From Fidelibacterota bacterium (GTDB lineage Bacteria > Fidelibacterota > Marinisomatia > Marinisomatales > TCS55), in assembly GCA_046861385.1 (NCBI GenBank), contig JBHHTW010000008.1, positions 1 to 64,000 on the forward strand: a stretch of 64,000 nt of DNA, given 5' to 3'. The position numbers were made by a program, and so were the translations under genes. This document shows positions 31,608 to 63,980 of the stretch, piece after piece. The notes under the pieces were generated by a model. The model searched no databases. It worked only from the letters and a program-made list of their open reading frames with translations, and was not told where the DNA came from. Numbering within the stretch: the stretch's first letter is position 1; each line of letters opens with the position of its first letter.

Positions 31608-31631
31608 TAGTAACTTATATGTGAGTTACTA
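31608..31631. promoter_or_regulatory. Palindromic operator copy 1 (candidate TrmB site)
   Basis: TAGTAACT-TATATGTG-AGTTACTA, 31 bp upstream of the gap pair. Confidence 0.7.
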
Positions 31632-32676: not shown

Positions 32677-33674
32677 AAGTCGCTATTAATGGGTTTGGTC
32701 GGATTGGAAGATCTGTTTTCAGGATATTAAACAAGCAAAGCAAAATTGATGTTGTGGCAATTAATGATCTGGCAGACAATAATGCGCTTGCTTATTTATT
32801 AAAATACGATACAGTTATGGGGCGTTTAAAAGATTCTGTTGTTGTGACAGACAATGTACTAAAAACATCAAATCATGAAATCCAAATGTTATCAGAGCCA
32901 AATCCCGATAAGTTACCTTGGAAAAATATTGGTGTTGATGTTGTTGTTGAAGCAACCGGTATTTTTCGATTAAAAAATCAACTCCAGGCACATATTAACG
33001 CTGGGGCATCAAGAGTAATATTAACTGTACCGTCTAAAGATGAAATAGATTATACTGTAGTGATTGGCGTTAATGAAGACGGATTGACTCCGGAACATAA
33101 AATTGTATCAAATGCATCTTGCACCACCAATTGCTTGGCGCCCATGGCAAAAATTTTAAATGATGCGTTTGGAATCGAATACGGCGTGATTAACACCATT
33201 CATGCTTATACAAACGATCAACGCTTAGCAGACGTTCCTCACTCTGACTGGCGGCGCAGCCGAGCTGCCGCAGAAAATATTATTCCAACAACGACCGGTG
33301 CGGCAAAGGCCGTGGGGAAGGTACTCCCTGAACTCGATGGTAAATTGGACGGAATCGCCATGCGCGTTCCTGTGCCCGATGGATCAATCGTAGATTTAAA
33401 CACGGAATTGAAAACCAATGTGACGGCGGTTGATGTACGCCAAGCAGTAAAAGAAGCTGCTTCCACAAGTAGATTAACTCCGATTTTGGAATATGAGGAG
33501 ACACCGATAGTATCTACGGACATTATCGGAAACCCTCATTCGTCCATTTTTGATGCTCCTTTTACAACTGTAATCGATAAACGATTTGTAAAAACACTCA
33601 ATTGGTATGATAATGAGTGGGGTTACTCAAACAGGGTAGTAGATTTAATAAATATATTCTTTCAACAGGTGTAG
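32673..33674 (+). CDS. gap: Type I glyceraldehyde-3-phosphate dehydrogenase
   Basis: INGFGRIGR, SNASCTTNCLAP, IHAYTNDQ, NIIPTTTGAAKA, RVPV, WYDNEWGYS. GTG start overlaps the upstream stop. Confidence 0.95.
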   Translation: MKVAINGFGRIGRSVFRILNKQSKIDVVAINDLADNNALAYLLKYDTVMGRLKDSVVVTDNVLKTSNHEIQMLSEPNPDKLPWKNIGVDVVVEATGIFRLKNQLQAHINAGASRVILTVPSKDEIDYTVVIGVNEDGLTPEHKIVSNASCTTNCLAPMAKILNDAFGIEYGVINTIHAYTNDQRLADVPHSDWRRSRAAAENIIPTTTGAAKAVGKVLPELDGKLDGIAMRVPVPDGSIVDLNTELKTNVTAVDVRQAVKEAASTSRLTPILEYEETPIVSTDIIGNPHSSIFDAPFTTVIDKRFVKTLNWYDNEWGYSNRVVDLINIFFQQV

Positions 33675-36326: not shown

Positions 36327-36350
36327 TAGTGACTCATTTATGAGATAATA
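36327..36350. promoter_or_regulatory. Palindromic operator copy 2 (candidate TrmB site)
   Basis: TAGTGACT-CATTTATG-AGATAATA in the 50-bp spacer between two divergent GH13 genes. Confidence 0.65.
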
Positions 36351-47790: not shown

Positions 47791-48624
47791 TTAAGCAATG
47801 AAACCGCTTGGATCTTGAGCCTGAGAAATCAATCTATCCAAATCAAATTCATCTTTTTGCATAATATTTTTTACAATCGGATTAATATCTATATCAAGAC
47901 GCTGCCCGGCTAAGGTAATATCCAAAACAATGTAATCTGATGCAATTTTTGTAATGGCCGGGTTTGAAGTCCAAATTGCACGTCCATTATGTTTGGACGC
48001 GCTTCCCATGATTGTCACTTTATGATCAATCACCATTACAATTTTGGGTTTCCAAATTTTCTGAATATCTTCTTCTTTCAACTTATATGAAATGGTTGTT
48101 CCTATAGGATGACTGATTTCGGAAAAAGAAAAAACTATAATATCAATATTCCGCTCATGAGCTGATTGTAATTCTTTGTACACTTTTTTGAATTCGCCGT
48201 TCCATACATTGATTATGATGGATGATTTTGCATTATTGATAGCTTCACGCATTTTAAAAATAAGATTGGCATATCCATGGATATGCCAAAAATCAAACGC
48301 TTCTTCATTTAAATCTAATTTATCTAATGCTGTTTTCAATCCGTCTATTTGGTCATCGTGCAAATTTTTTAAATGTTCTATCAGTGAATATGGAGATAAA
48401 GGGATAAACCGTTTTGGAGAATCTCCCTCAGAATTCACTATACCTTTTTTTTCTAATCGGTTTAATGTGGCATAAATTGCAGAACGGGGAATACCGGCAT
48501 CCTTGCTGATTTCGTAACCAGTTGCTGGATTATTTTGTATCAAGCTAATATAAGCTCTTGCTGCATTTGTCGATATACCGAATTGTTCCAGTAATAGTAT
48601 AATTTCTTTATCAGTATTTGTCAT
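47791..48624 (-). CDS. trmB: TrmB family sugar-responsive transcriptional regulator
   Basis: N-terminal wHTH ARAYISL..ATGYEISKDAGIPRSAIYATLNRLEKKG; C-terminal effector domain (AKSSIII..VID). Confidence 0.88.
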   Translation of the reverse strand: MTNTDKEIILLLEQFGISTNAARAYISLIQNNPATGYEISKDAGIPRSAIYATLNRLEKKGIVNSEGDSPKRFIPLSPYSLIEHLKNLHDDQIDGLKTALDKLDLNEEAFDFWHIHGYANLIFKMREAINNAKSSIIINVWNGEFKKVYKELQSAHERNIDIIVFSFSEISHPIGTTISYKLKEEDIQKIWKPKIVMVIDHKVTIMGSASKHNGRAIWTSNPAITKIASDYIVLDITLAGQRLDIDINPIVKNIMQKDEFDLDRLISQAQDPSGFIA

Positions 48625-48703: not shown

Positions 48704-48727
48704 CAGTAACTCAATAGTGAGTTACTA
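48704..48727. promoter_or_regulatory. Palindromic operator copy 3 (candidate TrmB site)
   Basis: CAGTAACT-CAATAGTG-AGTTACTA between divergent trmB and the GH13-TBDR operon; extra half-site AGTTACAA at 48695. Confidence 0.75.
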
Positions 48728-48759: not shown

Positions 48760-50604
48760 ATGAAATTCATACTTTGCTCATTGCTATCAAGTGCGATGTT
48801 TATAAAAGCCGAAAGCCCTGATTGGGCAAAGAACGCCGTCTGGTATCAAATTTTTCCTGATCGATTTTATAACGGGGATAAAACAAACGACCCCACATTA
48901 GAAAGCCTGATTGGGACATGGCCTTGGGAGCGTCAAGATGAATGGAGCCTTTCCCCCTGGACTTCAGATTGGTATCAATTTCAACCGTGGGAAAAAGAAA
49001 ACGGTAATGATTTTCGGTACCAGTTTCAAATACGCCGGTATGGTGGTGATTTACAAGGAGTAATTGATAAACTGGGTTATTTAGAACAATTGGGTATTAA
49101 TGCCATTTATTTTAATCCGATATTCGATTCTCCATCTTCCCATAAATACGGCGCAGCTTATTACCATCACATTGATAGATATTTCGGACCTGATCCTTAT
49201 GGTGATACCAAAATAATGGAATCTGAGACACCTGACGACCCCGAAACTTGGCAGTGGACAAGTGCCGATAAATTGTTTCTTGATTTAATTCAAAAAGCCC
49301 ATCATAAAAATATTAGAATTATCCTAGATGGCGTATTTAATCATGTGGGGCTCACATTTTGGGCATTTCGGGATGTAATCGAGAATAGAGAAAACAGCCC
49401 ATATTATTCATTATTTAATATTGAAGGTTCTGAATTAATGGACAAATCCCATCTCAACGATTATCAAACTCTACCTGATTATTTAATCCAAAAAGACCAA
49501 TCTCCCCTTCGATATACCGGCTATGTGGCAGATCTTCCAGCTTTTCGTCAGAATGAAGGGGGACCCGTTGAACCCATCCGAAGTCACATTCACCAGGTTG
49601 TTAACCGTTGGATGGACCCAAACGGTGATGGTGATCCATCCGATGGTATTGACGGCTGGCGACTGGACGTGGCAGAGCGCGTACAAATGGTATTCTGGGA
49701 TCAATTTGGCAAGTGGGTTCGGGAAATCAATCCTGAGGCGTATATTACCGGAGAAGTATGGTGGGAAGACTGGTGGAATAATAAACAATTTAATGCTTCA
49801 CCTTGGTTAGAAAATGGTCGATTTGATGCTGTGATGAATTATCGTTTTGGGGATGCCATGTTTAGATTCTTCATCAATCAGAAAACGCAAATTTCTCCAT
49901 CAAGCTTGGATAGTTTGCTGAATGGAATAATTTCAGATTATGGTTACGAAAAAACATTGGTGCTGCAAAATATATTGGACAGCCATGACATGGAACGTCT
50001 TGCGTCGGCTGTAGTGAACCCTGACCGATGGATTGATCATGGAAACAACGTTTGGTACAACCGCGAGTTTGATATTAGAAAACCCACGGCAAATGAAAGA
50101 CAAATTCAAAAGACCATTATTACATTTCAGTTTGTATTCCCCGGGGCGCCTTTTATATATTATGGTGACGAAGCGGGCATGTGGGGTGCCGATGATCCCG
50201 GCTGCAGGAAGCCCATGGTTTGGCAGGAGTTCATTTATGATACTGAAAAAGCTCATTTTTGTGACGAATTAGATGATTGCTCAGGTTCCCGGCCTGTCGA
50301 TGAAGTTTTTTTTGATGATGATTTATGGACCCATTATCACCAACTCATTATGTTACGTAAAAAACATAAATCCCTTTCAAGGGGAGAGTATCTAGTTGTT
50401 TACACTAATGATAAAACGGGTATATTTGCCTTTGAGAGACATCATGATAATGAACGAATTTTAGCAGTTTTCAACAGTTCAAAAAATTCGATTTTATTAA
50501 ATGATGATATTTTTCCTGAAAGCAGATCAAGTTGGAAACAGTTATTTGGTACTATTTCAAATAATTTAAATGCAAAAGATGCAAAAATATTTATTCATTA
50601 CTAG
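48760..50604 (+). CDS. GH13 neopullulanase/cyclomaltodextrinase-like enzyme with signal peptide
   Basis: PDWAKNAVWYQIFPDRF, YGGDLQG, LDGVFNH, DGWRLDVA, GEVW, DSHD, YYGDEAGM. Confidence 0.88.
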   Translation: MKFILCSLLSSAMFIKAESPDWAKNAVWYQIFPDRFYNGDKTNDPTLESLIGTWPWERQDEWSLSPWTSDWYQFQPWEKENGNDFRYQFQIRRYGGDLQGVIDKLGYLEQLGINAIYFNPIFDSPSSHKYGAAYYHHIDRYFGPDPYGDTKIMESETPDDPETWQWTSADKLFLDLIQKAHHKNIRIILDGVFNHVGLTFWAFRDVIENRENSPYYSLFNIEGSELMDKSHLNDYQTLPDYLIQKDQSPLRYTGYVADLPAFRQNEGGPVEPIRSHIHQVVNRWMDPNGDGDPSDGIDGWRLDVAERVQMVFWDQFGKWVREINPEAYITGEVWWEDWWNNKQFNASPWLENGRFDAVMNYRFGDAMFRFFINQKTQISPSSLDSLLNGIISDYGYEKTLVLQNILDSHDMERLASAVVNPDRWIDHGNNVWYNREFDIRKPTANERQIQKTIITFQFVFPGAPFIYYGDEAGMWGADDPGCRKPMVWQEFIYDTEKAHFCDELDDCSGSRPVDEVFFDDDLWTHYHQLIMLRKKHKSLSRGEYLVVYTNDKTGIFAFERHHDNERILAVFNSSKNSILLNDDIFPESRSSWKQLFGTISNNLNAKDAKIFIHY

Positions 50605-51853
50605 TTTTTTAGTCATACTCTTCTTTTCATGTGAAAAGCATAAAGAGGAGTCCTTGGCTGTAGTTAATGGAAATACCATTGCTTTAAAATCATTTATTCA
50701 ACGATATAATGATTTTCTATTTCAGACACAACTCCAGGACAATTTATTAAATAGAAACCTTTTTCTAAATTCTCTCATTGATGAAATTTTAATTGTTGAT
50801 TACGCCAATGATAGCGGTATAATAAACGATCCTGCTGTTATTAGAGAAAAACAACGTTTATATGATCAATTGTTATTGAATCAATTTTTTAATCATCAAA
50901 TATCCCCCAAGACAAATGCGACAGAATCGGAATTAAGACGTTTATTTACCTGGTCAAAAACTTCGATCCATGTCCGGCACTTATTTTCCAAAAACCTCGC
51001 GACCATTAAGAAAATTCAAAAAGAAATTCAGAGTGGCATTCAATGGGACATATTAGCTAAAACTTATTTTAATGATCCCACGCTAAAGGACAATGGCGGG
51101 GACATCGGCTGGATGAATATGGGTGAAATGGATCCTGCCTTTGAAGTTGTTGCTTTCTCGCTTACGGGGGATGAAATATCCGCTCCTGTAAAAACCAGAA
51201 ATGGTTATAGTATCATTCAAGTTATAGAAAGGGAAAAAGATATTTTTTTGACTGAACAGGATTATCAGCATGAGAAGGCCTGGCTGGAACAGCTGGCAGT
51301 GCAATATAAAAAATTACCGGCAGTCCGGGCTTATACCGATAGCGTTGAGGCAGAACTCAATATTCATTTTTCACAAAATAATTTATCGAAACTTTTTAAT
51401 GCAATAGTATATCATACGGAATCCAGCCACATTTATAATCATTCTCCTCTAGTATTTTTTAAGGACGGTAACCACTGGACAGTACAGGAAACATACCAAA
51501 AGCTGAATGACCTTTCCAGACGGCAATTCAACCATATAACAACAGAAGAAAATCTAAAAAATATTATCCGGGGACTGGCCGTGAGAAATATATTTCTTGC
51601 GGAGGCTGAAAAGATGAGATTAGAAAAATCAGCATTATTTACGGAAACTTTCACTCAAAAATATAATGCATATTTAATCAATCTGTGTCTTGAAAATTGT
51701 TATAATTCGATTCCTTTGGATACTATCGATCAAATTCAAAGCGTCAAAACAGCTTATATAAATTTTCGTAATGAATTAGCTAATAAAAGTTCAATCAGTG
51801 TTGACAGCCTGAAAGTAAAATCATTTATTTTAAATCAGGCGATTACATTATGA
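50570..51853 (+). CDS. Parvulin/PpiC-type peptidyl-prolyl isomerase lipoprotein (SurA/PrsA-like)
   Basis: Lipobox LFFSC; VRHL..., GGDIGW...MDPAFE.VAFSL...ISAPVKTRNGYSII. Confidence 0.8.
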   Translation: MQKMQKYLFITSFLVILFFSCEKHKEESLAVVNGNTIALKSFIQRYNDFLFQTQLQDNLLNRNLFLNSLIDEILIVDYANDSGIINDPAVIREKQRLYDQLLLNQFFNHQISPKTNATESELRRLFTWSKTSIHVRHLFSKNLATIKKIQKEIQSGIQWDILAKTYFNDPTLKDNGGDIGWMNMGEMDPAFEVVAFSLTGDEISAPVKTRNGYSIIQVIEREKDIFLTEQDYQHEKAWLEQLAVQYKKLPAVRAYTDSVEAELNIHFSQNNLSKLFNAIVYHTESSHIYNHSPLVFFKDGNHWTVQETYQKLNDLSRRQFNHITTEENLKNIIRGLAVRNIFLAEAEKMRLEKSALFTETFTQKYNAYLINLCLENCYNSIPLDTIDQIQSVKTAYINFRNELANKSSISVDSLKVKSFILNQAITL

Positions 51854-54768
51854 ATCGTAAACTAATTCCATTTCTATTATTGATTAATCTGATTGTATTG
51901 TCTGCCGGTACAACAGGAAAATTGACAGGTATTCTTTCGGACAAAAATACAGGTGAACCCCTTATTGGCTGTAATATCATATTAAATGGAACTGACCTCG
52001 GTACTGCTTCTGACATTAATGGTGAATATTTTATATTAAATATTCCCCCTGGGACATATTCCGTTCGATTTCAAATGATTGGTTATGAATCGATCATTTC
52101 AAATAATGTTTCAATTTCAATTGATAAAACAACCCGGCTGAATGCTGGTTTAGCTATTGAAGTTATTGAAGGGTCTGAAGTGGTGGTTACAGCAGAGCGA
52201 AAATTAATCCGGTTTGATGTGACACAATCGGAAGCGCGTATTACTTCTGACGAATTGGATGCCATGCCGGTGACAGAAGTGAAAGATATACTGCGATTAC
52301 AGGGAGGGATAACACAAGATGCCGGTGGCGGTCTGCATATGCGAGGCGGCCGAACCAATGAAATATCATATATGGTAGACGGTGTTCCCATGAGCGATGC
52401 CTATGACGGAGGTCTTTCCGTACAAATTGAAAATGACAATATACAGGAGTTGCAGGTCATCAGCGGTACATTTAATGCTGAATATGGAAAAGCGCTTACC
52501 GGAGTAGTGAATATGGTGACAAAAGATGGTGGAAATAATTTTGAAGGATTTGTAAATCTTTACGCCGGTGATCATTCAACCAGTGATACCATTTTCCTTG
52601 ACCTTGATTCTTATACTGTCCAAAATGATATTAGTCTGTCCGCAAATTTAAACGGTCCTATTATTCCTGGTTTAATTACATTTTATTCATCAGGACGGAT
52701 AAATAAATCAGACGGATGGCTCAACGGTCTCCAAACATTTACAATGTATGGTGATACATTGTTCTACGATAAAAACAATAATGGTTATCGTGATAATCAA
52801 GAAAAACTAAAAGATCCATTTTATAAAAGTATGAATTGGTACGATTCTTGGTCAACTCAAAATAAAATAACCGTTAAAATAAGCCCGACAACACGCATAA
52901 AAAGAAATTCCATTATCAATTCCAGAGAATCGCAAGACTATAACGAAGACGAGGATCATTTCAATCAAATGGTTCAGGGCGGTAGAAAAACTGACTACAA
53001 CTACGGTAGTTTTATTGCATATAATTTATCTCATTCATTTTCATCTATGTCCTTTGCCGAAATTAATGCCACGGAATACATACATAAATTTGAGTCATAT
53101 TTATTTGCAGACCCTCTGGATAGTCGATATACGACTCCAGACAGTCTTTTTTGGGCACATACAGTCGGTTTGTTACCGGACCACATTTTAGATAAATATG
53201 GTCAAGAAGCAAACTATTTCCCAGAGTATACATTTGATCGATGGGATGTGGAAACAGACAGGTTGAAGCGAAAAACAGACACAAAAAGTTTAAAGTTTGA
53301 TTTAACAGGCCAGATAAATAAATATAACCAGGTAAAATTTGGATTTGATATTACAAGGCATCAATTAACGTATGACAGCTATGATTTGTTGGATTTATCA
53401 GAAGCCGATCAAATATATACTCCCATTATTCCTGCAAAGGGCAGTTACAACCGAACAACGTATAAATTCAAACCTGAAGAAATGTCTTTTTATCTACAAG
53501 ACAAAATTGAATACGGAGATATGATTATTAATGCGGGAATCCGATTTGAATCCTTTGATCCAAAGGCCAAAGTACCAAGGAATATTCATGAACCTTACAT
53601 TTATAACCCTCGTAATCCGGCGCTTGATACACTCTCTTTTGAAGAATTAGAAAATATCCATTGGGGGGATATTTCGTATTTGGATGAAGACAGTCTGGGG
53701 AATCCTGTCAGTCATACGTATGCAGAATATTATAACCGTTTTAACGATCAACCTGATCTAGTGAGCCAAAAAGGCTGGTGGAAAAAAACAACTGTAAAGT
53801 CTCAATTAAGTCCACGGTTGGCAGTTGCTTATCCAATTTCTGATAAAGGAGTTATTCATTTTGCTTACGGCTATTTTTTTAAGATTCCTGATTTTTCAAA
53901 ATTATACAACGAAACAGATTACAAGCTTTCGGAAACAGAAACAAATTTCGGAATATTTGGTAATCCGGATTTAAAACCAGAATCAACGGTCAGCTACGAG
54001 CTTGGTCTTCGACAGGAAGTCGGCCCTAATATGAAATTAGAAATCAAAGGTTTCTATAGGGATGCCAGAAATTATGTTTCCAGCGGAATTCCAATTGACT
54101 TAGGTGATGGTAAATCATATTACACCTATGTGAATAAAGATTATTCCAATTCTCGTGGTATTATTATTTCTTTCTATAAACGTTTTAATCGACTCATTGG
54201 ATGGAACTTTGATTATACATATCAGATAGCAGAAGGATCCAATTCAAATCCAGATGAGGAATTTGGCGCTGTACTGGATGGAAAGGAACCCACACGATCC
54301 ATTATTCCATTGGACTGGGATCAAAGACATAATATAAATGGATCTATTTCCATTGGAAAAAATGGTTGGGGTGCAAATATGATTATCCAATATGGAAGCG
54401 GCTACCCTTACACGCCGGAGATCACTAATTATGAACAACAGGGAGCTGTATTATCAAATGTTTTAATACGTAATAGTCGGAGAAAATCAAGCAATTTCAG
54501 AATCGATTTAAAATTATTCAAGCAGGTACAAGTCGGAGCCTTAAACGGTAAATTCTATATTAATATTTATAATTTGTTTGACAGACGAAATGAAATAAGT
54601 GTTTACGGAGACTCGGGGCGATCCGACCAGACAATCGAGGAATCCCGCGCAGAAATAATTTCGCCTTTTGAACCGTTAAGACCTAATACGATCAATGAAT
54701 ATTATAACCGACCACATTGGTACGATGAACCGCGGGAAATACAATTTGGATTTCAATTCGCATGGTAA
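51850..54768 (+). CDS. TonB-dependent receptor with N-terminal carboxypeptidase-regulatory-like domain
   Basis: GTTGKLTG..GEPLIG; plug HMRGGR..YMVDG..SGTFNAEYG; SPRLAVAYPI, GNPDLKPE, NIYNLFD; C-terminal PREIQFGFQFAW. Confidence 0.9.
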   Translation: MNRKLIPFLLLINLIVLSAGTTGKLTGILSDKNTGEPLIGCNIILNGTDLGTASDINGEYFILNIPPGTYSVRFQMIGYESIISNNVSISIDKTTRLNAGLAIEVIEGSEVVVTAERKLIRFDVTQSEARITSDELDAMPVTEVKDILRLQGGITQDAGGGLHMRGGRTNEISYMVDGVPMSDAYDGGLSVQIENDNIQELQVISGTFNAEYGKALTGVVNMVTKDGGNNFEGFVNLYAGDHSTSDTIFLDLDSYTVQNDISLSANLNGPIIPGLITFYSSGRINKSDGWLNGLQTFTMYGDTLFYDKNNNGYRDNQEKLKDPFYKSMNWYDSWSTQNKITVKISPTTRIKRNSIINSRESQDYNEDEDHFNQMVQGGRKTDYNYGSFIAYNLSHSFSSMSFAEINATEYIHKFESYLFADPLDSRYTTPDSLFWAHTVGLLPDHILDKYGQEANYFPEYTFDRWDVETDRLKRKTDTKSLKFDLTGQINKYNQVKFGFDITRHQLTYDSYDLLDLSEADQIYTPIIPAKGSYNRTTYKFKPEEMSFYLQDKIEYGDMIINAGIRFESFDPKAKVPRNIHEPYIYNPRNPALDTLSFEELENIHWGDISYLDEDSLGNPVSHTYAEYYNRFNDQPDLVSQKGWWKKTTVKSQLSPRLAVAYPISDKGVIHFAYGYFFKIPDFSKLYNETDYKLSETETNFGIFGNPDLKPESTVSYELGLRQEVGPNMKLEIKGFYRDARNYVSSGIPIDLGDGKSYYTYVNKDYSNSRGIIISFYKRFNRLIGWNFDYTYQIAEGSNSNPDEEFGAVLDGKEPTRSIIPLDWDQRHNINGSISIGKNGWGANMIIQYGSGYPYTPEITNYEQQGAVLSNVLIRNSRRKSSNFRIDLKLFKQVQVGALNGKFYINIYNLFDRRNEISVYGDSGRSDQTIEESRAEIISPFEPLRPNTINEYYNRPHWYDEPREIQFGFQFAW

Positions 54769-57700
54769 AATACATTTCTACATTCTTCCTTTTGGGTGTT
54801 CTGCTTCTGGCTCAATCGAGTGAGCGGGGAGACCCAAATTTTCGCCGGGCCACCAACATTGATGTCAATAAAGTCCGCACCACAATATTTAATTATGGAA
54901 TTACTGGAAGAACTGGCGCCAACCCGGGTGAAATTCCCTATGAATGGCCCGTGAATTCTAATCAACATTATATTGCCATGACCGCATTGGCTGTCGGCGC
55001 TGAGGTACAAACAACGTCCGGTGAAACCAGAGCATTGGTTACCATTCCTTTTCGTTCGGATCAATCTGGTAATTCCATGGCTTGGGAACCCGTCCCGGAG
55101 TATTTAAACCCCAATTCCCAGAAAATAACTATCAGTGATGACTTAGACACATGGCCTTCATATTGGCCGGATAAAATGGATGACAGTAACGATCCTGGAT
55201 GGCCAGGGTCTTGGAATGGTTATTTTGGAAAAAATCAATTTAACGCACAACAGGAAATTTATTATAAAACATCGGATGATAGAAATTTCATTATTGGAAA
55301 TCCTTACTCTCCAGATACAACGGATTTGAGCCGTAAAGGAGCGGGACTGTTAACTGGAGTTCGAATCATGGAATGGAAGCAAATTCTTATTGAAGATGTC
55401 GTTTTTATTCTCCATGAAATCACCAATGATGGTTCTTTTGACTATAATAAAGTATCCTTTTCCATGTGGTTGGCTGATCTGGTTGGTGGTGATGGTGATA
55501 GTGGCGATGATACTCCCGATTTCGATTTGATCTATGATGTCGCCTGGTCCATGGACAGCGACGGTGTTGGTAATGCTGCTTTTGGTTCAGATCCTGTGGG
55601 TGTTGCTGCAACGTCTTTTATTGAAACGCCTGGAAATAATACAGATCGAATTGACAATGATGGCGATGGAGAAGAGGACGGGCCTATTATTCTTGAAACG
55701 ATGATTGAGAATGAAATATTGGGGAACGCTATTGATGATAACGGCAATGGTCTTGTGGATGAAAATATGACTCATGTCCCTTTTGGTAACCAGGCAGGTG
55801 TTTCCTTTGCTGACCATATCGACAATGACAATGATGGGGAAGCTGGAAGCCCGGTGGTAACTCAAGACATGATTAATGCAGCAAATTCCGGGCAATGGAG
55901 TATTTGGCCTAATATAAACGACGAAATTCAAGATTCAATAATCCACCTCATTGGTTTAGATGAATCTGATTTAGATCATGCTTATAAGGATGGAATTGAT
56001 AATAATGCTGACCCAGACAATCCATATTTTCTGGAATACCCAGTTGGATTAGGGGCAGAAGTCAATTCTCCACTAGTGGATTCGGCTATGGTTTTAGCGG
56101 CCGCAAGTGACTTGTGGCTCCGATATAAAGTTCCCAATAGTGATATTATCCTCTATGACGTGAATATTGAAGATATTGGGAAACCGTTTGCGGACGGAGT
56201 GGATAATGATGGGGACGGAGCTGTTGACGAAGGTATCGATGAAGGAATTGATGAAATGATTGATGAGTCTCGAGATGATTTTCTTGACAATGATGGTGAC
56301 TGGGAGTTGAGCGACGATATTGGCATCAATGGTGATGAGTCTGGCGGAATAGAAGCGGGTGTTGGCGATCAAAAACCTACGTCTGGTTCAGGCACAGGTT
56401 TCCCCGGTGAGCCCAATATTGATAAAACGGATGTATCAGAATCGGACCAAATGGGGTTAACCGCCGTTGGTTATGATCCTGCCGGATCCATTCCGGTTAC
56501 GAGTGACAATTATTTATGGCTGTTTTACATGACTCCGGGAAGCTACTGGCAGCCACCTCCCGGCGGTCAACCACCCGGTGATTATGATTTATTTGTTACA
56601 TCTGGATTTTTCCCGCTGCAGGCCGGGCAAACTGAACGCATTGCCATGGCTGTAACTCTTGGGAACGATGAAGCAGACGCCCTGAGAAATAAAGCTGTAG
56701 CACAAACCACCTATGACTTTGATTATCAATTTGCCAAAGCTCCAGACCCACCCGTAGTTACAGCGGTTCCCGGAGATGGAAAAGTGACTATTTATTGGGA
56801 TAAGAGCGCTGAAGAATCAATTGATAAATATATGGGCGAAGTTACAAATGGTGTGGATCTCCATGACTTCGAAGGATATAAAATTTACAGAGCTACGGAT
56901 TTCGAATTTAACGATGCCTACACCATCACTGACGGTGATGGGAATCTTACTTTTTTGGAACCCTATTCGCAAAATGGACAGAAAGCCCAATGGGATATAA
57001 TTAATGGTAAAAGAGGGTGGCATCCAGTTGATTTAAACGGTATCAAATTTTACCTCGGGGATGATTCCGGTCTGGAACATTCTTTCGTAGATGAAAATGT
57101 CGTTAATGGACAAAAATATTATTATGCTGTTGTATCCTATGATTACGGCGGTGATTTGACCAACAATATCATTCCCAGCGACTCCCCCATGAAGCTCCGT
57201 GTGAATTCATTAACCGGTACGGTAGAATTGGGGCCAAATGTGGTTGAAGTCACTCCTTCACCTCCTTCCGCCGGGTACGTTGATGCTGAATTCCAAGGAG
57301 ATCAAATTGATCACATTTCCGGCACATCAGTTGGAGAAATATTTCTTGAAATTGTTGAACCGATGGCTATTAAAGACCATCACACATACCAGATAACATT
57401 TGAAGACACAATATTGCCCAATCAGCAGGGGTTGGCCGGGTATGATACCATTACGACCAAATCTTATTATTTGGTGGATGTTACCTTTGATGAAAATCCA
57501 GACACATTAGTCAATGACGATCATTATTTCCCCGAATCAGATGGACAGATTGTTGATGGCTTCAGATTGGCTTTTAATAATATTGCTGATTTGACGTTCA
57601 ATGAGGAACAGTCAACATGGTCCAGAGATAGTCTCTGGACATTTAAAGTTTTAAGATATGCCACTTTTAATGTAATTGGTACCAAAACTCCTTATGATTA

Positions 57701-58487
57701 TCGAATTATTTTTTCTGAAACACAATCTGATTCCACCATTGATTTTTGTATGCGCTATCTCCCAAATTCATCTACGTGCTTTCCTGGGTTTTTATATCCG
57801 GGACGCGCCGTTAATTTTAAAGTTCAGCGGCGTGAATCCCTCACCGGCGATGACAGTGTAGACTGGGTGGAAATTCCCATTGGATTTATAGACGTTATCC
57901 CTATCGGAACCTCTGATGGTTATTTCAATGCAGATGGAAATAGAGAAAGTGATTGGATTGTATTTTTGGATTACGAAGATGCTGCCGGAAACCCTGCTCC
58001 CTCCTGGGCGTTTTATTTAAATCTCCTCCCATTTGATGATGAACTCATTTATAACGAACCGCAACCGGGCGATACAGCATATATTATTATCGAAAAGCCA
58101 TTCCTCCCTGAGGATGTTTATGAATTTACCACCATAGCTTCACACATTGACCCCGCTCAAGCAAAGATCGATCTAAAAAAGATTAAGGTGGTGCCAAACC
58201 CATATCTCGCAGCGAATGCTTTTGAGGGTCAGAACACGTTTACGTCGGGACGAGGCCCAAGAGAAATTCAATTTCGATATTTACCGAAAGAGTGTACGAT
58301 TCGCATATATACAATATCCGGTGAATTAGTGAAAACGATTCATCATTCATCGTCTATGGATTCCGGTACAGGAAAGTGGGATTTGCTTACAAAAGATAAC
58401 CTGACAGCATCTTATGGTATTTATATATATCACATCGAAGCACCGGGGATCGGTGAAAAAATCGGGAAATTAGCTATTGTAAAATGA
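54762..58487 (+). CDS. Large acidic secreted protein (1241 aa) with Asp-rich repeats, FN3-like region and variant T9SS-like CTD
   Basis: Signal peptide; repeated DxxDNDGDG; PGDGKVTIYWD...FEGYKIYR...YYYAVVSYD; C-terminal KVVPNPY...IRIYTISGELV...WDL...GIYIYHI...GKLAIVK. Confidence 0.8.
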   Translation: MVKYISTFFLLGVLLLAQSSERGDPNFRRATNIDVNKVRTTIFNYGITGRTGANPGEIPYEWPVNSNQHYIAMTALAVGAEVQTTSGETRALVTIPFRSDQSGNSMAWEPVPEYLNPNSQKITISDDLDTWPSYWPDKMDDSNDPGWPGSWNGYFGKNQFNAQQEIYYKTSDDRNFIIGNPYSPDTTDLSRKGAGLLTGVRIMEWKQILIEDVVFILHEITNDGSFDYNKVSFSMWLADLVGGDGDSGDDTPDFDLIYDVAWSMDSDGVGNAAFGSDPVGVAATSFIETPGNNTDRIDNDGDGEEDGPIILETMIENEILGNAIDDNGNGLVDENMTHVPFGNQAGVSFADHIDNDNDGEAGSPVVTQDMINAANSGQWSIWPNINDEIQDSIIHLIGLDESDLDHAYKDGIDNNADPDNPYFLEYPVGLGAEVNSPLVDSAMVLAAASDLWLRYKVPNSDIILYDVNIEDIGKPFADGVDNDGDGAVDEGIDEGIDEMIDESRDDFLDNDGDWELSDDIGINGDESGGIEAGVGDQKPTSGSGTGFPGEPNIDKTDVSESDQMGLTAVGYDPAGSIPVTSDNYLWLFYMTPGSYWQPPPGGQPPGDYDLFVTSGFFPLQAGQTERIAMAVTLGNDEADALRNKAVAQTTYDFDYQFAKAPDPPVVTAVPGDGKVTIYWDKSAEESIDKYMGEVTNGVDLHDFEGYKIYRATDFEFNDAYTITDGDGNLTFLEPYSQNGQKAQWDIINGKRGWHPVDLNGIKFYLGDDSGLEHSFVDENVVNGQKYYYAVVSYDYGGDLTNNIIPSDSPMKLRVNSLTGTVELGPNVVEVTPSPPSAGYVDAEFQGDQIDHISGTSVGEIFLEIVEPMAIKDHHTYQITFEDTILPNQQGLAGYDTITTKSYYLVDVTFDENPDTLVNDDHYFPESDGQIVDGFRLAFNNIADLTFNEEQSTWSRDSLWTFKVLRYATFNVIGTKTPYDYRIIFSETQSDSTIDFCMRYLPNSSTCFPGFLYPGRAVNFKVQRRESLTGDDSVDWVEIPIGFIDVIPIGTSDGYFNADGNRESDWIVFLDYEDAAGNPAPSWAFYLNLLPFDDELIYNEPQPGDTAYIIIEKPFLPEDVYEFTTIASHIDPAQAKIDLKKIKVVPNPYLAANAFEGQNTFTSGRGPREIQFRYLPKECTIRIYTISGELVKTIHHSSSMDSGTGKWDLLTKDNLTASYGIYIYHIEAPGIGEKIGKLAIVK

Positions 58488-59491
58488 TGAACATTTTTAA
58501 AAAAATATACATTCTTTTGTTCATCATTTCTTTATCCTATGGCGTAGATAAAACGGGTACAACAGCTGCAAAATTTTTATCCATCAATATTGGTTCTCAA
58601 GCTGTTGGCCTGGGTGGCGCTTTTACTTCGATAGCCAATGATGCTACAGCCATGTATTGGAATCCTGCCGGATTAAGTTTTTACAATACTAAAGAGGTGT
58701 ATTTAAACCATTCCAATTGGATAGCGGATATTGCATTTGATTATTTTGGCGTAACTCTGCCTCTTCGAGGCGGACATGTTTTTGGGTTTAATATTACATC
58801 CTTAACGATGGATGATATGGAAGTTACCCGATATGGAAATGAGGATACAGATCAAACCTTTTCTGCGGCTGATTATGCAATCGGCATGACATATTCAGTA
58901 AACCTGACGGATAGATTTTCGATTGGTTTTAATGGGAAATATATTCAAGAAACGATTGCTAATAATCACGCGTCTAGTGCTGCTCTGGATGTGGGAACAC
59001 TATTTACAACACCATATGGATTCAGATTGGGAACCAGTATCAGCAATTTCGGTCCGAAAATGAATATGACTGGTGACGATTTGTTGGTTCCGGTTGATGT
59101 GAATGAAACAATCAATGGTGACAATGAAAGCATAACCGGGTATTTATCAACAGATTATTTTGATTTACCCCTTGTCCTAAGAGTGGGTATTTCAAATGAT
59201 ATCCAATTGGGAAATTTAGGTCGTTTCACATGGGCCATTGATGCCAATAATCCTAACGATAACTCCATGTATTTGAATATGGGTGCCGAAGCAGGACTGT
59301 TCAAAGATTTATTTGTAATAAGAGTCGGGGCGAATTCACTATTTTTGAATGATAGGGAGAAAGAGCTTTCTCTCGGTTGCGGAATTAACACACCAAGTGC
59401 TTTGGGTAGAATTTTGCATTTTAATTATAGCTTTGAAACATTATCTCATCTTGGAGACCTTCATCAAATTAGTTTTCATATTTCTTATTAA
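58484..59491 (+). CDS. PorV/PorQ family outer-membrane beta-barrel
   Basis: KTGTTAAKFLSINIGSQAVGLGGAF..ANDATAMYWNPAGL, ISNFGP, LPLVLRVG; C-terminal aromatic residue. Confidence 0.85.
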   Translation: MMNIFKKIYILLFIISLSYGVDKTGTTAAKFLSINIGSQAVGLGGAFTSIANDATAMYWNPAGLSFYNTKEVYLNHSNWIADIAFDYFGVTLPLRGGHVFGFNITSLTMDDMEVTRYGNEDTDQTFSAADYAIGMTYSVNLTDRFSIGFNGKYIQETIANNHASSAALDVGTLFTTPYGFRLGTSISNFGPKMNMTGDDLLVPVDVNETINGDNESITGYLSTDYFDLPLVLRVGISNDIQLGNLGRFTWAIDANNPNDNSMYLNMGAEAGLFKDLFVIRVGANSLFLNDREKELSLGCGINTPSALGRILHFNYSFETLSHLGDLHQISFHISY

Positions 59492-59539: not shown

Positions 59540-59563
59540 GAGTGACTCATTTATGAGTTACTA
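59540..59563. promoter_or_regulatory. Palindromic operator copy 4 (candidate TrmB site)
   Basis: GAGTGACT-CATTTATG-AGTTACTA, 86 bp upstream of the tandem-CBM gene. Confidence 0.75.
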
Positions 59564-59649: not shown

Positions 59650-62163
59650 ATGAATAAAATGCTAAAATCTTTCAGTCAAATTATTATGACTGGAGCACTT
59701 TTCATGTCACTTGGGTGGTCACAAATAAGTGTCACCTTTCAAGTAGATATGAATAATGAAACTGTGGATGCAAACGGTGTTCATTTGGCTGGCGCTTTTC
59801 AGGGTTGGGATCCTGCTGCAACAGAATTAACCGATACAGATGGCGATGGAGTATATTCTATCTCAGTGGATACCCTTACAGCAGGTGCTACTTATGAATA
59901 TAAATATGTCAACGGCAATGCCTGGGGCGGCGATGAATTCCAAGGTGGATCAAATCGCTCTATTACAATTCCTGACACTAATACTGTTTTACCCGCTTAT
60001 TGTTTTAATTCGCTTCTTATTTGCTCTGAAGTAAATATCACTTTGAATGTTGATATGAATTTTGAAGTTGTTTCAGCGGCTGGTGTTCATGTTGCTGGCG
60101 CTTTTCAGGGTTGGGATCCTGCTGCAACAGAATTAACCGATACAGATGGCGATGGAGTATATTCTGTAACGCTGGCTATGACGATTGGAGATACTGTTGA
60201 ATATAAATACGTCAATGGTGATGCCTGGGGAAGTGATGAATTTCAAGGGCAATCGAACCGCTCTTTAATTGTTCCTGATGTAGATACCGAATTACCTGCA
60301 TACTGTTTTAACAGTCTTGATCTTTGCGACTATGCAGCCGAGGGTGTTTGGGTCACTTTCCAAGTTGATATGTCATATGAAATTATCAATGAGATAGATG
60401 GTGTTCATATCGCCGGTTCCTTCCAGGGCTGGGATCCATCGTTAACGGAATTGTCTGATGTGGATGGCGATATGGTCTATGAAGTAACGCTGGATATTCT
60501 CGAATCAGCTGGTGACTCTGTATATTACAAATACGTTAATGGAAATGAATGGGGCGAAGATGAAAATATAGGCGCTGATAGACTGTTGGTTGTCCCGGAT
60601 ACCACGACTATTATAGCCGCGCCCTGTTATGGTAGCGCTGATCCATGTCCTACCCCGCCTGACAGCGTTAATGTTACATTTGTTGTTGATATGTTATATG
60701 AAACTGTTTCAGCAAACGGTGTTCATGTCGCCGGAAACTTCCAAAGTTGGGATCCTGCTGCCAGTGAAATGACAGATGCAGATGGCGATGGTAAATATGA
60801 AGCCACTTTTCACGTTGCCACGGGAGAAGAACTACAATACAAATTTATCAATGGCAATGATTGGGATTCAGCAGAAACCGTACCGGATGAGTGTGTCTCT
60901 GGTGGTAATCGCACTGTTAATGCTCCCAACTTCGATCGACCATACGAAGTGTGTTATGCAATGTGTGAAATTTGTCCAGAAGAACCTGTTACTAAAACGG
61001 TTGTATTTTCGGTTGACATGTCAGAGTGGCTGGATGAAGACGGTGCAACAGGAATGCCTATTTTCAGTGTGTCACGAGGCGATCAAATGCAGGTCCGCGG
61101 CGGTTTTAACGGCTGGAATTGCGATACTCCTGAAGATTGTGAAATGTCACGTACGCCCGGCACAAACGTTTTTAGCCTAGCGGTTTCTTTAACGGATCAA
61201 GCCGATAAGGAATTTGAATACAAATTCTATTTGCAACACGATTCAACATCATTAGCCTTATTTGAAGCTGAGTATGGCGCCATGTACGGAGATATGGGCT
61301 GGGAAGATTCACCACAGTTTGGTGGATCCAATCGTATCTTTCAAATGGGTGAAGATGACGGAACAGGCTTATTGGAACTGCCTCTTGCTGGTTATTACGA
61401 TCTCCCGGCAGGTGCGGTAGTCCCTGCAGGTACACCTGTTTCTCTTACGTTCTCAGTGGACATGACCGGCGCAGATGCGGATGGTTTTGACTCAGCTGAA
61501 GATACGGTCTCATTGGTTCTAAAAGACAAATGGTTGAACTATTTACAGGGTTTTGGCGATAATTCTACCCATACGGCTACATCAAATGGTGATGGTACAT
61601 ATTCAGTTACGGTTGATTTTGTTGGTCCGATTCCCTGGCATATGATTTATACTTGGGGATTCTATGATGTTTCATCAGTTGTTGATATTGAAGAGGGCGG
61701 TGGTTTTGGATTGGGCCGCTTCCGCGCTCGTTATCATCACGCCAATTCGGATAGAGGTTGTGCTTGGGAAGATTTTACTTTCGAACAGGATACTTGGCAG
61801 AAAGATCCACCCTTGCCTCTTGAAGACTTTGACCCAACTGCAGTATGTATTGCACTGGAGATTGTAAGTGATGTTGTACCGGCTAAATTTCAATTGTCGG
61901 ATAACTATCCAAATCCATTCAACCCAACAACGAATATTTCATTCAGCATTCCCACGGCGTTAGATGTCCAAGTGAATGTCTATAATATTCTGGGACAAAA
62001 AGTGGTTACCTTCAATGAGGGACAACTCAATGCCGGTACTTATAATATTCGCTGGAATGGTAGAGATCAAATGGGGAATGTTCTCTCTAGCGGTATTTAC
62101 TTCTACGAACTCCAGGCTGGTGATCAGTTTAAACAAATCAAGAAAATGACTTTTGTGAAATAA
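59650..62163 (+). CDS. T9SS-secreted protein of tandem starch-binding (CBM20/48-like) modules; no catalytic domain recognised
   Basis: Four ~100-aa repeats VTFxVDM..GVHxAGxFQxWDP..DxDGDG.Y..YKY/FxNG..W plus two divergent FSVDM modules; CTD NYPNPFNP...SGIYFY...KKMTFVK. Confidence 0.82.
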   Translation: MNKMLKSFSQIIMTGALFMSLGWSQISVTFQVDMNNETVDANGVHLAGAFQGWDPAATELTDTDGDGVYSISVDTLTAGATYEYKYVNGNAWGGDEFQGGSNRSITIPDTNTVLPAYCFNSLLICSEVNITLNVDMNFEVVSAAGVHVAGAFQGWDPAATELTDTDGDGVYSVTLAMTIGDTVEYKYVNGDAWGSDEFQGQSNRSLIVPDVDTELPAYCFNSLDLCDYAAEGVWVTFQVDMSYEIINEIDGVHIAGSFQGWDPSLTELSDVDGDMVYEVTLDILESAGDSVYYKYVNGNEWGEDENIGADRLLVVPDTTTIIAAPCYGSADPCPTPPDSVNVTFVVDMLYETVSANGVHVAGNFQSWDPAASEMTDADGDGKYEATFHVATGEELQYKFINGNDWDSAETVPDECVSGGNRTVNAPNFDRPYEVCYAMCEICPEEPVTKTVVFSVDMSEWLDEDGATGMPIFSVSRGDQMQVRGGFNGWNCDTPEDCEMSRTPGTNVFSLAVSLTDQADKEFEYKFYLQHDSTSLALFEAEYGAMYGDMGWEDSPQFGGSNRIFQMGEDDGTGLLELPLAGYYDLPAGAVVPAGTPVSLTFSVDMTGADADGFDSAEDTVSLVLKDKWLNYLQGFGDNSTHTATSNGDGTYSVTVDFVGPIPWHMIYTWGFYDVSSVVDIEEGGGFGLGRFRARYHHANSDRGCAWEDFTFEQDTWQKDPPLPLEDFDPTAVCIALEIVSDVVPAKFQLSDNYPNPFNPTTNISFSIPTALDVQVNVYNILGQKVVTFNEGQLNAGTYNIRWNGRDQMGNVLSSGIYFYELQAGDQFKQIKKMTFVK
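59788..60165 (+). repeat. Identical 72-bp direct repeat (59788-59859 and 60094-60165)
   Basis: gctggcgcttttcagggttgggatcctgctgcaacagaattaaccgatacagatggcgatggagtatattct occurs twice, 306 bp apart. Confidence 0.9.
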
Positions 62164-62231: not shown

Positions 62232-63980
62232 TTATTTTGTTAAAACACCCTTTACTACAAAAATTCTATTTTGTGATTGATACCTAATAAAATATATGCC
62301 GCTTGGAAATTGGCTTGCATTCCAAACGAAGTCATGTTCCCCCTTATCCACTTTTTGGTTTATTAATGTATCAATCCATTTTCCCTTGATATTATATATA
62401 TCCAAACGGAGAGGATGCTTATCTGCGTTCTCAACTTTAATTCGGATGGTTGTTTCTGGATTAAAGGGGTTGGGGTATAGACTTATGATATTGTGTTCAA
62501 TTGGTATTATATCACTTTTAATCGTCAGCGGAAATACATTTCCGGATCCTTTAACCAGTAAATACCTTTGATTGGTTTCAGAAACATCGAAAAATTCTCG
62601 TTCTCCATCGGGCCAATTAACTACCACTGAATCAATATCAATCTCATCTCCCAAGCCAAAGTGTTGCCGTAGTGTATTTTGTGAACAGTAACCGTTTCCA
62701 GCTGCCACCTGACTAAATTGGGATCCGGATTGAGTATATATTATAATTTTGGCTCCAATTGCAAATGGATCTCCTTCATTTGATTGCAGTAAAAATTGAA
62801 CCCAGTTATTTGATGGAGAGTCGTTTCTGTATAAGAGAACAGATCCATCAGAATAGGAATGCCCTGCGGCAATAATATCGAGATCCCCATCGTTGTCTAA
62901 ATCTCCATAAGCACAACCGATACCATTATTGTAACTCTGTAGGCCGGAAGATTGACTCAAATCTTCAAATGAACCATTTTGCAAATTTCGAAAAAATGAA
63001 TTGGGGACATCTCCAAAACCAGATTGATTATTGTTAAAAATATCCAGCCAGCCATCATTGTCTGCATCAAAGAAAAACGTTCCCCAGGCCATACTCCCGG
63101 GGATGTCTGAAACACCGGTTAAATCTGCAACATCATAAAAATATCCCTGTGGTGAATTTTGCAGTAATGAATTTTCATACAGATTAGATGTATACACATC
63201 TATCCAACCATCTCGATTATAATCGCCGAGCGCTACACCCATGCCCATCACAGGTAAAATAACACCTGCTGAAGCGGATATATCTGAAAATACGCCGCTC
63301 TCTTCTTTCCGAAGTAAAATATTACCTCTGTTATTATCTTGAGTAAGGAAAAGATCATCATCTCCATCGTTATCATAATCAAAAAAACCTAACCCCATAA
63401 CCAGTCCTCCATTTTGTGGTCCTGCAGCATTTATATTTTGCGCGAAGTCTGTAAATGTCCCGTCTCCATTATTCTTAAAGAAATAATTAAACTCAGTTAA
63501 CCGCCCAACATATAAATCTATCCAACCGTCATTATTAACATCGTTCCATGCGCCACCTTCGAGTCCACCATTTGTTACGATTCCCGACCGGACGGTTACA
63601 TCGCTGAATGTCCCGTCTCCATTGTTTCTATATAAAAAACTGTTGCCTTTCATTGCTCCGATGAATAAATCCAGATAGCCATCATTATTATAATCAGCCG
63701 CTAGGGGGAGTCTTGTTTCAGCAGATGTTGTTATACCAACCGCGAACGATACTTCTTCAAATTCCATGCTGCCCAGATTATGAAACAATAAATTAGAACC
63801 ATTATTCCGATCGCAGACAAATACGTCCTCCAAATCATCGTTATCGAAATCAAAAATACAAACTCCCTCACCGGATATATTATAATTCATCCCGGCTTCG
63901 GAGGTCAGGTTTGTGAAATAAATTTGCCCGTTCACTGCCGTAAACAACGTGATGATACCAATGAAAATTATTGCATTCAT
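62232..63980 (-). CDS. FG-GAP repeat / ASPIC-UnbV (CRTAC1-like) protein with T9SS CTD
   Basis: Repeated DxDNDGxxD motifs; AIGAKI..GNGYCSQN..HFGLG..VNWPDG; C-terminal YPNPFNP...SGIYFI. Confidence 0.87.
   Translation of the reverse strand: MNAIIFIGIITLFTAVNGQIYFTNLTSEAGMNYNISGEGVCIFDFDNDDLEDVFVCDRNNGSNLLFHNLGSMEFEEVSFAVGITTSAETRLPLAADYNNDGYLDLFIGAMKGNSFLYRNNGDGTFSDVTVRSGIVTNGGLEGGAWNDVNNDGWIDLYVGRLTEFNYFFKNNGDGTFTDFAQNINAAGPQNGGLVMGLGFFDYDNDGDDDLFLTQDNNRGNILLRKEESGVFSDISASAGVILPVMGMGVALGDYNRDGWIDVYTSNLYENSLLQNSPQGYFYDVADLTGVSDIPGSMAWGTFFFDADNDGWLDIFNNNQSGFGDVPNSFFRNLQNGSFEDLSQSSGLQSYNNGIGCAYGDLDNDGDLDIIAAGHSYSDGSVLLYRNDSPSNNWVQFLLQSNEGDPFAIGAKIIIYTQSGSQFSQVAAGNGYCSQNTLRQHFGLGDEIDIDSVVVNWPDGEREFFDVSETNQRYLLVKGSGNVFPLTIKSDIIPIEHNIISLYPNPFNPETTIRIKVENADKHPLRLDIYNIKGKWIDTLINQKVDKGEHDFVWNASQFPSGIYFIRYQSQNRIFVVKGVLTK

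Follow-up and report, generated by a model that had tools for sequence, protein, structure and literature searches.

The DNA analyzed in this study is a 64,000-nucleotide stretch from a Fidelibacterota bacterium (positions 1 to 64,000 of contig JBHHTW010000008.1, GenBank assembly GCA_046861385.1; hereafter the window). It contains a run of five tightly packed genes on the forward strand, beginning with a GH13 enzyme and a peptidyl-prolyl isomerase (PPIase) and ending with a TonB-dependent receptor, a large protein of 1241 amino acids (aa) and an outer-membrane barrel of the PorV/PorQ family (Table 1). In the list of open reading frames (ORFs), the receptor gene overlaps the gene for the large protein by 7 nt, and the latter overlaps the barrel gene by 4 nt, in agreement with the three overlapping genes described in an earlier reading made from the letters alone (the sequence-only reading). 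That reading proposed that the three genes encode an uptake machine in which a protein exported through a type IX secretion system (T9SS) takes the place of SusD. The evidence presented here makes it nearly certain that this triad is a conserved uptake module, while the manner in which its parts work together can be assigned with varying degrees of confidence.

The arrangement of the three genes is strongly conserved. A scan of species representatives gave 664 encoding stretches, and the best 80 of these, the closest relatives only, yielded 79 loci that were searched with hidden Markov models (HMMs) built from the paralogues of this genome. The source labels of these loci include Marinimicrobia/Neomarinimicrobiota, Ignavibacteria (including the cultured Melioribacter), Calditrichota, KSB1, Rhodothermales, Balneolaceae, Kryptonium, Stahlbacteria and others. 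The receptor lies directly upstream of the large-protein gene in 61 of the 62 loci with enough flanking sequence, a PorV-family barrel lies directly downstream in 69 of 71, and the full triad is adjacent in 53 of 55 testable loci, with median gaps of 9 and 14 bp. The two non-adjacent loci, accounted for by an ORF-caller artefact and by the order receptor-barrel-partner, both contain all three genes. Within the phylum, 195 of the 201 genomes sampled carry the large-protein family, as do 136 of the 141 genomes of good quality and all 78 genera (78/78); the family-negative genomes are mostly 0.8 Mb in size. A further, phylum-wide scan around Melioribacter found the family in 57 of 101 genomes, counted without division into classes. 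The triad census called for by the sequence-only reading thus returned a conserved unit present in several phyla, with five copies in the genome under study.

These five complete triads, in an assembly of 2.43 Mb, are the one in the window and those at C89:126918-133967, C9:30276-37163, C67:12099-18876 and C89:41537-49097 (contig and positions). The assembly contains 11 PorV-family matches, compared to 8, 14 and 18 in one genome each of Melioribacter, Rhodothermales and Calditrichaceae. The same genome also has variant loci, where the place between receptor and barrel is taken by another, shorter protein bearing a tail of this kind. Across the five paralogous triads, divergence is greatest in the body of the large protein (p-distance 0.63-0.80); the values are 0.62-0.69 for the receptor, 0.59-0.68 for the barrel and 0.49-0.67 for the tail.

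The receptor (972 aa) contains the Pfam domains CarbopepD_reg_2 (59 bits), Plug (44.5 bits) and TonB_dep_Rec_b-barrel (66.4 bits), and no close solved relative was identified by sequence. The SusC/RagA model TIGR04056, which has a cut-off of 368.25 bits, gives it a score of only 51.4, with the match restricted to residues 24-410 (model positions 2-208 in the genome scan). Because the score is this low and confined to the N-terminal part, the receptor is considered to occupy the SusC position without being a member of the SusC family. Of the earlier description of a SusC-like receptor, the TonB-dependent receptor and its position therefore stand, while the family membership does not. Judged from its sequence, the barrel of the receptor is not SusC-like. 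Ten of the 17 TonB-dependent receptor matches in the genome belong to the same subfamily as the window receptor (E ≤ 2.5e-58; the remaining seven at E ≥ 1.4e-30), and all ten sit in triad or variant loci. The genome has one true SusC/SusD pair, on contig C60, the SusC of which (C60:10289-13126) scores 484 bits.

The large protein begins with a signal peptide (MVKYISTFFLLGVLLLAQSS), and its N-terminus (MVKYISTFFLLGVLLLAQSSERGD) contains no lipobox cysteine, the mark of a surface lipoprotein such as SusD/RagB; it is thus, as proposed earlier, a non-lipoprotein encoded where SusD would be expected. Pfam gave no family at E ≤ 0.01, and hence no SusD/RagB domain (PF07980, PF14322), the sole NCBIfam match was one of 15.3 bits to the CTD (C-terminal domain) part of the PorU model, a PDB profile search returned no matches, and relatives in the ESM Atlas were confined to 'hypothetical protein' clusters. 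Of 7,999 scored candidates, 3,656 belong to the family at E ≤ 0.001, every source name shown being 'hypothetical protein'. Among 1.84 billion representatives, scanned in full, 3,954 clusters defined at 50% identity match at E ≤ 0.001, and the stricter limit of E ≤ 1e-30 leaves 530; the family as a whole carries no name. Its conserved core corresponds approximately to residues 497-1241.

The N-terminal half of the large protein was modelled with a predicted local distance difference test score (pLDDT) of 85.2 and a predicted template modelling score (pTM) of 0.83. It forms a β-supersandwich built from residues ~20-289 and 564-655, between which an insert is accommodated. Structural comparison with VIA-align placed the supersandwich closest to the N-domains of dextran dextrinase (9ju0, Z 19.4), a bacterial glucoamylase (1lf6, Z 19.2) and glucodextranase (1ulv, Z 18.9), the top alignments covering 230-256 residues at a root-mean-square deviation (rmsd) of ~3 Å and spanning model residues 1-639; the N-domains of GH94, GH116 and GH65 enzymes follow at Z 15-18. 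Foldseek agrees weakly for this half (E 2e-4). Its TM-scores are low for both halves because the models are multi-domain, and VIA-align was the more informative of the two methods. The (α/α)6 catalytic domain that accompanies the supersandwich in the matched enzymes is absent from the model of the large protein. As modelled, the fold consists of the supersandwich followed by β-sandwiches, and the helical fold of SusD-type proteins was not seen.

The remaining parts of the large protein differ in their conservation. The Asp-rich insert (residues 290-563) varies greatly in length across the family, is mostly non-regular in the model and, to judge by its DxDxDG-type motif, probably binds calcium. 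The most conserved part is a fibronectin type III (FN3)-like domain (residues 657-835, including the motif DFEGYKIYR), which contains invariant columns in the family alignment and matches many FN3 domains at Z ~8 over model residues 3-181. The middle domain (residues 843-1125) is confidently modelled, with one weak match to domains of the flagellar junction protein FlgL (Z 9.5, 90 residues); it was compared within the C-terminal-half model rather than folded alone, and we make no claim of a new fold. The tail, with a pLDDT of 88.5 within the C-terminal-half prediction, resembles the solved CTDs of PorZ (5m11, Z 11.2, rmsd 2.6, 91 residues aligned), PorU (6za2, Z 9.1) and mirolase (Z 7.8). This predicted anatomy of head, stalk and anchor would fit a surface binding protein.

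The sequence of the C-terminus (KVVPNPY...IRIYTISGELV...WDL...GIYIYHI...KLAIVK) sets it apart from ordinary T9SS tails. The type A sorting-domain models TIGR04183/PF18962 give no match at E ≤ 0.01, whereas the three other CTDs in the window, in the starch-binding surface protein (34.5 bits) and in the proteins at 62232-63980 (43.2 bits) and 39823-42747 (43.9 bits), pass Por_Secre_tail, which bears out the proposal of a variant CTD distinct from its neighbors. The type B models PF13585 (CHU_C) and TIGR04131 also do not match the large protein; CHU_C scores of 24.6 and 26.2 bits, under the cut-off of 27, were obtained for two shorter paralogues that bear the tail. When an HMM built from 74 family tails was searched against all ORFs of the genome, 11 proteins reached 52.9 bits or more; the highest score below these (32.8 bits) belonged to an ordinary type A CTD. 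For eight of the 11 tail proteins, a PorV paralogue is encoded no more than 540 bp away and a receptor no more than 117 bp away. Of the other three, one lies at a contig start, one is beside a receptor and 4.4 kb from a barrel, and one is 3.0 kb from a barrel. Alignment with hhalign against the 41 type A tails of the genome indicates homology (97.1%, E 6.1e-11, 72 columns), with the difference residing chiefly in an insertion after the PNPY strand. These sequence comparisons support the view that the tail represents a CTD class of its own, related to type A, whose members occur beside PorV paralogues.

The barrel passes the PorV/PorQ family model NF033709 (186.6 bits, cut-off 90, residues 26-334), as expected from the earlier assignment, and falls under the equivalog cut-offs for PorV (NF033710, 69.4 of 250), PorQ (NF033711, 88.3 of 220) and PorV2 (NF052325, 80.8 of 325). 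Eight other receptor-linked barrel paralogues likewise miss these three cut-offs, and no PorP/SprF model matched the barrel in the NCBIfam scan at E ≤ 0.01. A profile of 46 barrel homologues matches Flavobacterium johnsoniae PorV (6h3i_F) at E 7.9e-26. In a complex model computed from barrel residues 21-335 and tail residues 1124-1241, with an alignment for each, the tail docks on the adjacent barrel with scores of 0.91, 0.91 and 0.90, compared to 0.04 for the best of three controls; the model has 162 contacts, at least 88% of which are shared between runs, and a partner pLDDT of at least 77. The docking anticipated by the sequence-only reading is thus supported in silico, and the large protein is probably tethered by its private barrel, as the complex model predicts. 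Passages of PMC10202324 describe a precedent in PorU and PorZ, the two T9SS proteins that keep their CTDs, retained on PorV and PorQ, respectively, and also report that proteins with type B CTDs cluster with cognate PorP/SprF barrels.

The genome encodes a T9SS, as judged from SprA, PorU and a PorV candidate, the three components that the search covered. SprA (contig C30) scores 588.6 bits (cut-off 200) and PorU (C15) 584.7 bits (cut-off 420), while the best PorV candidate is a separate 459-aa barrel (C2:21063-22442) with 195.1 bits, under the cut-off of 250. SprA was also found in four of five triad-bearing genomes of other lineages, the fifth being a metagenome-assembled genome of unknown completeness.

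Table 1. Features of the operon and its surroundings in the window, with the evidence for each.
Feature	Coordinates	Strand	Evidence or remark
Palindrome site	31609-31630		1 mismatch; between symporter and two GAPDH genes
Palindrome site	36328-36349		2 mismatches; between divergent GH13 pair
TrmB-family sugar-sensing regulator	47791..48624	-	Divergent from operon; PF01978 TrmB 65.5 bits, PF11495 34.3 bits
Palindromic operator AGTAACTCA-N4-TGAGTTACT	48705..48726	.	Between TrmB gene and operon; exact match to AGTRACTCANNNNTGAGTYACT
GH13 alpha-amylase/cyclomaltodextrinase-like enzyme, operon gene 1	48760..50604	+	PF00128 157.2 bits
SurA/PrsA-like PPIase, overlaps receptor gene	50570..51853	+	PF00639 Rotamase 60.3 bits, SurA_N_3 21.9 bits
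TonB-dependent receptor, non-SusC subfamily, N-terminal extension (NTE) + plug + barrel, 972 aa	51850..54768	+	Pfam, NCBIfam
Large protein, 1241 aa	54762..58487	+	ORF list
Signal peptide of large protein, without lipobox Cys	54762..54818	+	Read from translation
β-supersandwich, first part, residues 20-289	54819..55628	+	Model, VIA-align, Foldseek
Variable Asp-rich insert, DxDxDG-type repeats, residues 290-563	55629..56450	+	Sequence, model
β-supersandwich, second part and closing helix, residues 564-655	56451..56726	+	Strands and helix of model
FN3-like domain with insertion, residues 657-835	56730..57266	+	VIA-align
β-rich middle domain(s), residues 843-1125	57288..58136	+	pLDDT mostly >85
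Variant T9SS CTD, residues 1130-1241 (putative class)	58149..58484	+	HMM, hhalign, VIA-align, complex model
PorV/PorQ-family 14-strand-type barrel, private to operon, 335 aa	58484..59491	+	NF033709 186.6 bits
Palindromic operator, second copy, upstream of CBM gene	59541..59562	.	Exact; before CBM48/20 gene
Starch-binding surface protein, CBM48 + CBM20 + X25, ordinary type A T9SS CTD	59650..62163	+	Pfam/NCBIfam

The genes surrounding the triad point to its substrate. The window contains an alpha-glucan island with GH13 genes at 33952-36303, 36354-38360, 39823-42747 and in the operon itself, together with a GH77 MalQ, an alpha-glucan phosphorylase, two sodium:solute symporters and the CBM48/CBM20/X25 surface protein. 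The palindrome AGTRACTCA-N4-TGAGTYACT has four matches in the window at two or fewer mismatches compared to 0 expected from shuffled sequences, and at one or fewer mismatches it occurs at only three sites in the genome, all of them in the window. The shared operator of the sequence-only reading is therefore well founded, and the TrmB-family regulator, which matches the NCBIfam TrmBL1/TrmB models below their cut-offs, appears from these sites to control a small regulon marked by the palindrome. Additionally, the order GH13-PPIase-receptor-partner-barrel-CBM protein recurs in other phyla, with one such locus in Melioribacter. In 33 of the 54 related loci where this could be tested, the gene directly upstream of the receptor encodes a PPIase homologue; CBM48/20 homologues are encoded downstream in 31 of the 79 loci and GH13 homologues upstream in 18, a count limited by flank length. 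On the basis of the gene context, the palindromic operator and this conserved order, the window triad is assigned to alpha-glucans, in line with the malto-oligosaccharides named earlier. Behind one of the operator sites lie tandem glyceraldehyde-3-phosphate dehydrogenase (GAPDH) genes (31663-33674; 337 and 333 aa).

Another triad has different neighbors. Around the paralogue at C89:126918-133967 lie genes for an S66 LD-carboxypeptidase, an M15 D-Ala-D-Ala dipeptidase, a T9SS GH18 protein and a NamZ exo-muramidase, and the region C89:122000-137659 looks, from its gene content, like a locus for cell-wall (peptidoglycan/chitin) scavenging. A second NamZ is encoded near the variant locus C89:107655-113961.

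Contact between the components was approached through co-variation of pairwise distances of receptor, body, tail and barrel over 51 complete triads. The raw mirror-tree correlations (0.72-0.86 across the triad parts) are uninformative because all are high, as expected for linked genes. In partial Mantel analysis, with the other two parts regressed out and 999 permutations, residual co-variation was observed for receptor-body (r 0.55), receptor-barrel (r 0.55), tail-barrel (r 0.39) and body-tail (r 0.37), each with 0 of 999 permutations. No residual co-variation was observed for body-barrel (r 0.05, 241 of 999) or receptor-tail (r -0.07, 846 of 999). A ring of contacts running from receptor to body, tail, barrel and back to the receptor would give this pattern, which we treat only as a hint. 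Contact of the large protein with the receptor, the weakest link in the uptake reading, is hinted at only by synteny, the overlapping genes and the residual co-variation.

Taken as a whole, we lean slightly toward a reading in which the triad forms an outer-membrane nutrient-uptake module, here for alpha-glucans, and the large protein captures substrate for the receptor. Sec would carry the 1241-aa protein through the inner membrane, and the T9SS, with the variant CTD as guide, would carry it through the outer one. That CTD is predicted to bypass the general PorV/PorU attachment and to stay docked on the co-encoded barrel, which would anchor the protein at the surface without a lipid, as occurs for PorU on PorV and PorZ on PorQ. 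The stalk of FN3/Ig-like domains would then hold the galactose-mutarotase-like supersandwich head beside the receptor, where it could capture the oligosaccharides that T9SS-secreted GH13 and CBM48/20 proteins release, and hand them on to the receptor for import with TonB energy, a role analogous to that of SusD and the surface glycan-binding lipoproteins in Bacteroidia. In addition, the gene context suggests that the TrmB-type regulator would control the operon, the CBM gene, the second GH13 pair and the transporter/GAPDH unit through the palindrome, and paralogous triads with diverged heads may serve other substrates, such as peptidoglycan or chitin fragments.

Two more specific versions of this reading are tentative. 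It is possible, although rather doubtful, that the large protein acts as a SusD-like lid over the receptor. We would also regard as speculative, rather than expected, a single stable three-part outer-membrane machine of receptor, PorV-like barrel and large protein, in which the head closes over the receptor; in such a machine, the small barrel might pack against the TonB-dependent barrel and hold the tail of the cap delivered by the T9SS.

Several points weigh against the uptake reading. Partial Mantel tests on related, linked genes are known to be liberal, which is why the co-variation is given no greater weight above. The matched enzymes use the supersandwich as a non-catalytic accessory domain, and sharing this fold demonstrates no function. 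Among solved complexes, 116 of 157 attain the mark used for the complex model, as do 2 of 215 mismatched pairs, counts that hold only roughly here because our own alignments were used; the pass may also reflect likeness to known structures, because complexes of PorV with a substrate have been solved (6h3i, 8gl6 and others). As the census was drawn from the best 80 of 664 relatives, it says little about distant members. Two tail proteins (C9:14772-16901 and C89:102353-104635) are encoded 4.4 and 3.0 kb, respectively, from the nearest barrel, and the variant locus C13:7712-13030 has an adjacent receptor and PorV-like barrel with no tail protein between them. The module grammar is thus looser than the five full triads suggest. 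After the receptor/barrel pair of the C13 locus comes an NHL-repeat protein whose signal is of the lipoprotein type, and at C9:14772-28152, tandem receptor loci share one common barrel and include a TIG-domain protein and tail proteins of 680 and 709 aa.

Among the alternative explanations, the one that survives best, although we consider it unlikely, is that the large protein is anchored on the barrel and otherwise functions as an independent surface glycan-binding or adhesion protein, similar to SusE/SusF or a surface glycan-binding protein (SGBP), with neither a stable receptor complex nor a lid. Its role would then be to concentrate polymer near the cell, a function judged equally unlikely. 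The long FN3/Ig stalk with a distal head is what such a protein might be expected to have, and binding proteins with ordinary type A CTDs are encoded in the same loci. However, the position after the receptor is almost invariant, with genes that overlap or nearly abut, and the receptor and body show residual co-variation; neither of these is strong evidence against the alternative.

It is improbable that the large protein instead founds a new family of glycan enzymes, with the supersandwich or the middle domain as its active part, such that the module would consist of an enzyme plus an importer. Galactose-mutarotase-like supersandwiches are catalytic in mutarotases and form part of the active-site region in some lyases, and the middle domain has no assigned fold. 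However, the head is most similar to non-catalytic N-domains from GH15/GH94/GH65 enzymes, whose (α/α)6 domain is missing here, and the same family occurs in loci for chemically different substrates. The large protein also matches no sequence family in Pfam, NCBIfam or PDB, so that the known enzyme unrelated to transport that the sequence-only reading had held out as a possibility was not encountered. The last alternative, that the receptor serves export or surface assembly of the 1241-aa protein with the PorV-like barrel as landing site and no nutrient import, has a precedent in the TonB-dependent Oar, needed for PopC secretion in Myxococcus. The abstract of PMC6434023 states that protein secretion requires a TonB-dependent transporter, and the receptor has no characterized close relative. 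This alternative is very unlikely given that the modules are embedded in catabolic loci that also encode matching enzymes and inner-membrane symporters, that the tail is of T9SS type in a genome with a complete-looking T9SS, and that the plug and TonB-box-type architecture is usual for importers.

Compared to known systems, the proposed uptake module parallels, in position, context and multiplicity, the SusC/SusD (RagA/RagB) pairs and utilisomes of polysaccharide utilization loci in Bacteroidia. There, too, the gene for a TonB-dependent transporter is followed by one for a surface partner, the catabolic locus around them also encodes a regulator and secreted enzymes, and a genome has many paralogues of the pair for different substrates. 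Unlike that system, the triad has a receptor that fails the SusC model and a partner that lacks a SusD domain, is ~1240 rather than ~550 aa long and is not a lipoprotein; moreover, it needs a third gene, for a PorV-family barrel, and its proposed anchor is a T9SS tail in place of a lipid. In the PorU-PorV and PorZ-PorQ pairs of the Porphyromonas gingivalis T9SS attachment complex, a CTD is retained and docked on a PorV/PorQ-family barrel (as described in passages of PMC10202324), an arrangement predicted for the triad as well, and the PorZ and PorU CTDs are structurally the closest to the triad tail. They differ in being single-copy housekeeping components of secretion, while the triad pair is multi-copy and located behind a TonB-dependent receptor in catabolic operons, with an unrelated cargo body and a barrel below the PorV and PorQ equivalog cut-offs.

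Two further systems show partial similarities. SprB/SprF of Flavobacterium johnsoniae likewise combines a special CTD class with a clustered, dedicated PorV-like barrel as the proposed anchor (passages of PMC10202324), but the triad tail aligns with type A and not type B CTDs, its barrel belongs to the PorV/PorQ family and there is no link to gliding. In the Bacteroidota BAM complex, a passage of PMC12578637 describes BamG as a FadL-type barrel that lies against the larger barrel BamA and whose extracellular loops hold a surface protein, which provides a precedent for the receptor-barrel contact hinted at by the partial Mantel analysis. In contrast to the triad, however, BamG involves another partner and function and surface proteins that are lipoproteins, and only one barrel paralogue of the genome matches it, at 20 bits against a cut-off of 250.

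No published description of an operon combining a receptor, a CTD protein and a PorV-like barrel was found in the full-text literature, a search with most subscription journals outside its coverage, and the matching passages of the Caldithrix genome paper (PMC5317091) name B12 and thiamine receptors only. The triad is thus an undescribed, widespread and nameless combination of two known arrangements, a TonB transporter with its surface partner and a T9SS cargo on a PorV-like barrel. These relatives of the Bacteroidota are dominant on marine particles and in sediments, hot springs and bioreactors, and their glycan uptake is commonly deduced from counts of SusC/SusD, of which these lineages have few or none; the present genome, with one SusCD pair compared to ten receptors of the triad class, illustrates this contrast. 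If the uptake reading is correct, polysaccharide utilization loci of Marinimicrobia, Ignavibacteria, Calditrichota, Rhodothermota and others could be counted by a three-gene signature, the T9SS would gain a new role in building nutrient importers, and the expansions of PorV paralogues (11 here, 8-18 in the three other genomes) would be explained. Should the three-part machine exist, it would represent a lipoprotein-free counterpart of SusCD in most non-Bacteroidia lineages of the Fibrobacterota-Chlorobiota-Bacteroidota (FCB) group, possibly of older design, and would add a further class of T9SS tails, destined for private PorV paralogues rather than for the general attachment complex.

Two minor observations concern accessory components. 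Downstream of SprA, the region C30:17302-29020 encodes a 552-aa CTD protein and two highly diverged PorV/PorQ-family barrels (334 aa, 91.6 bits and 287 aa, 51.2 bits on NF033709), which are possible PorQ/PorZ-type attachment components of the phylum. The PPIase of the window operon may be a dedicated periplasmic chaperone for barrels or large cargo, and a second PPIase is encoded at C52:11658-12986, inside the variant locus on that contig.

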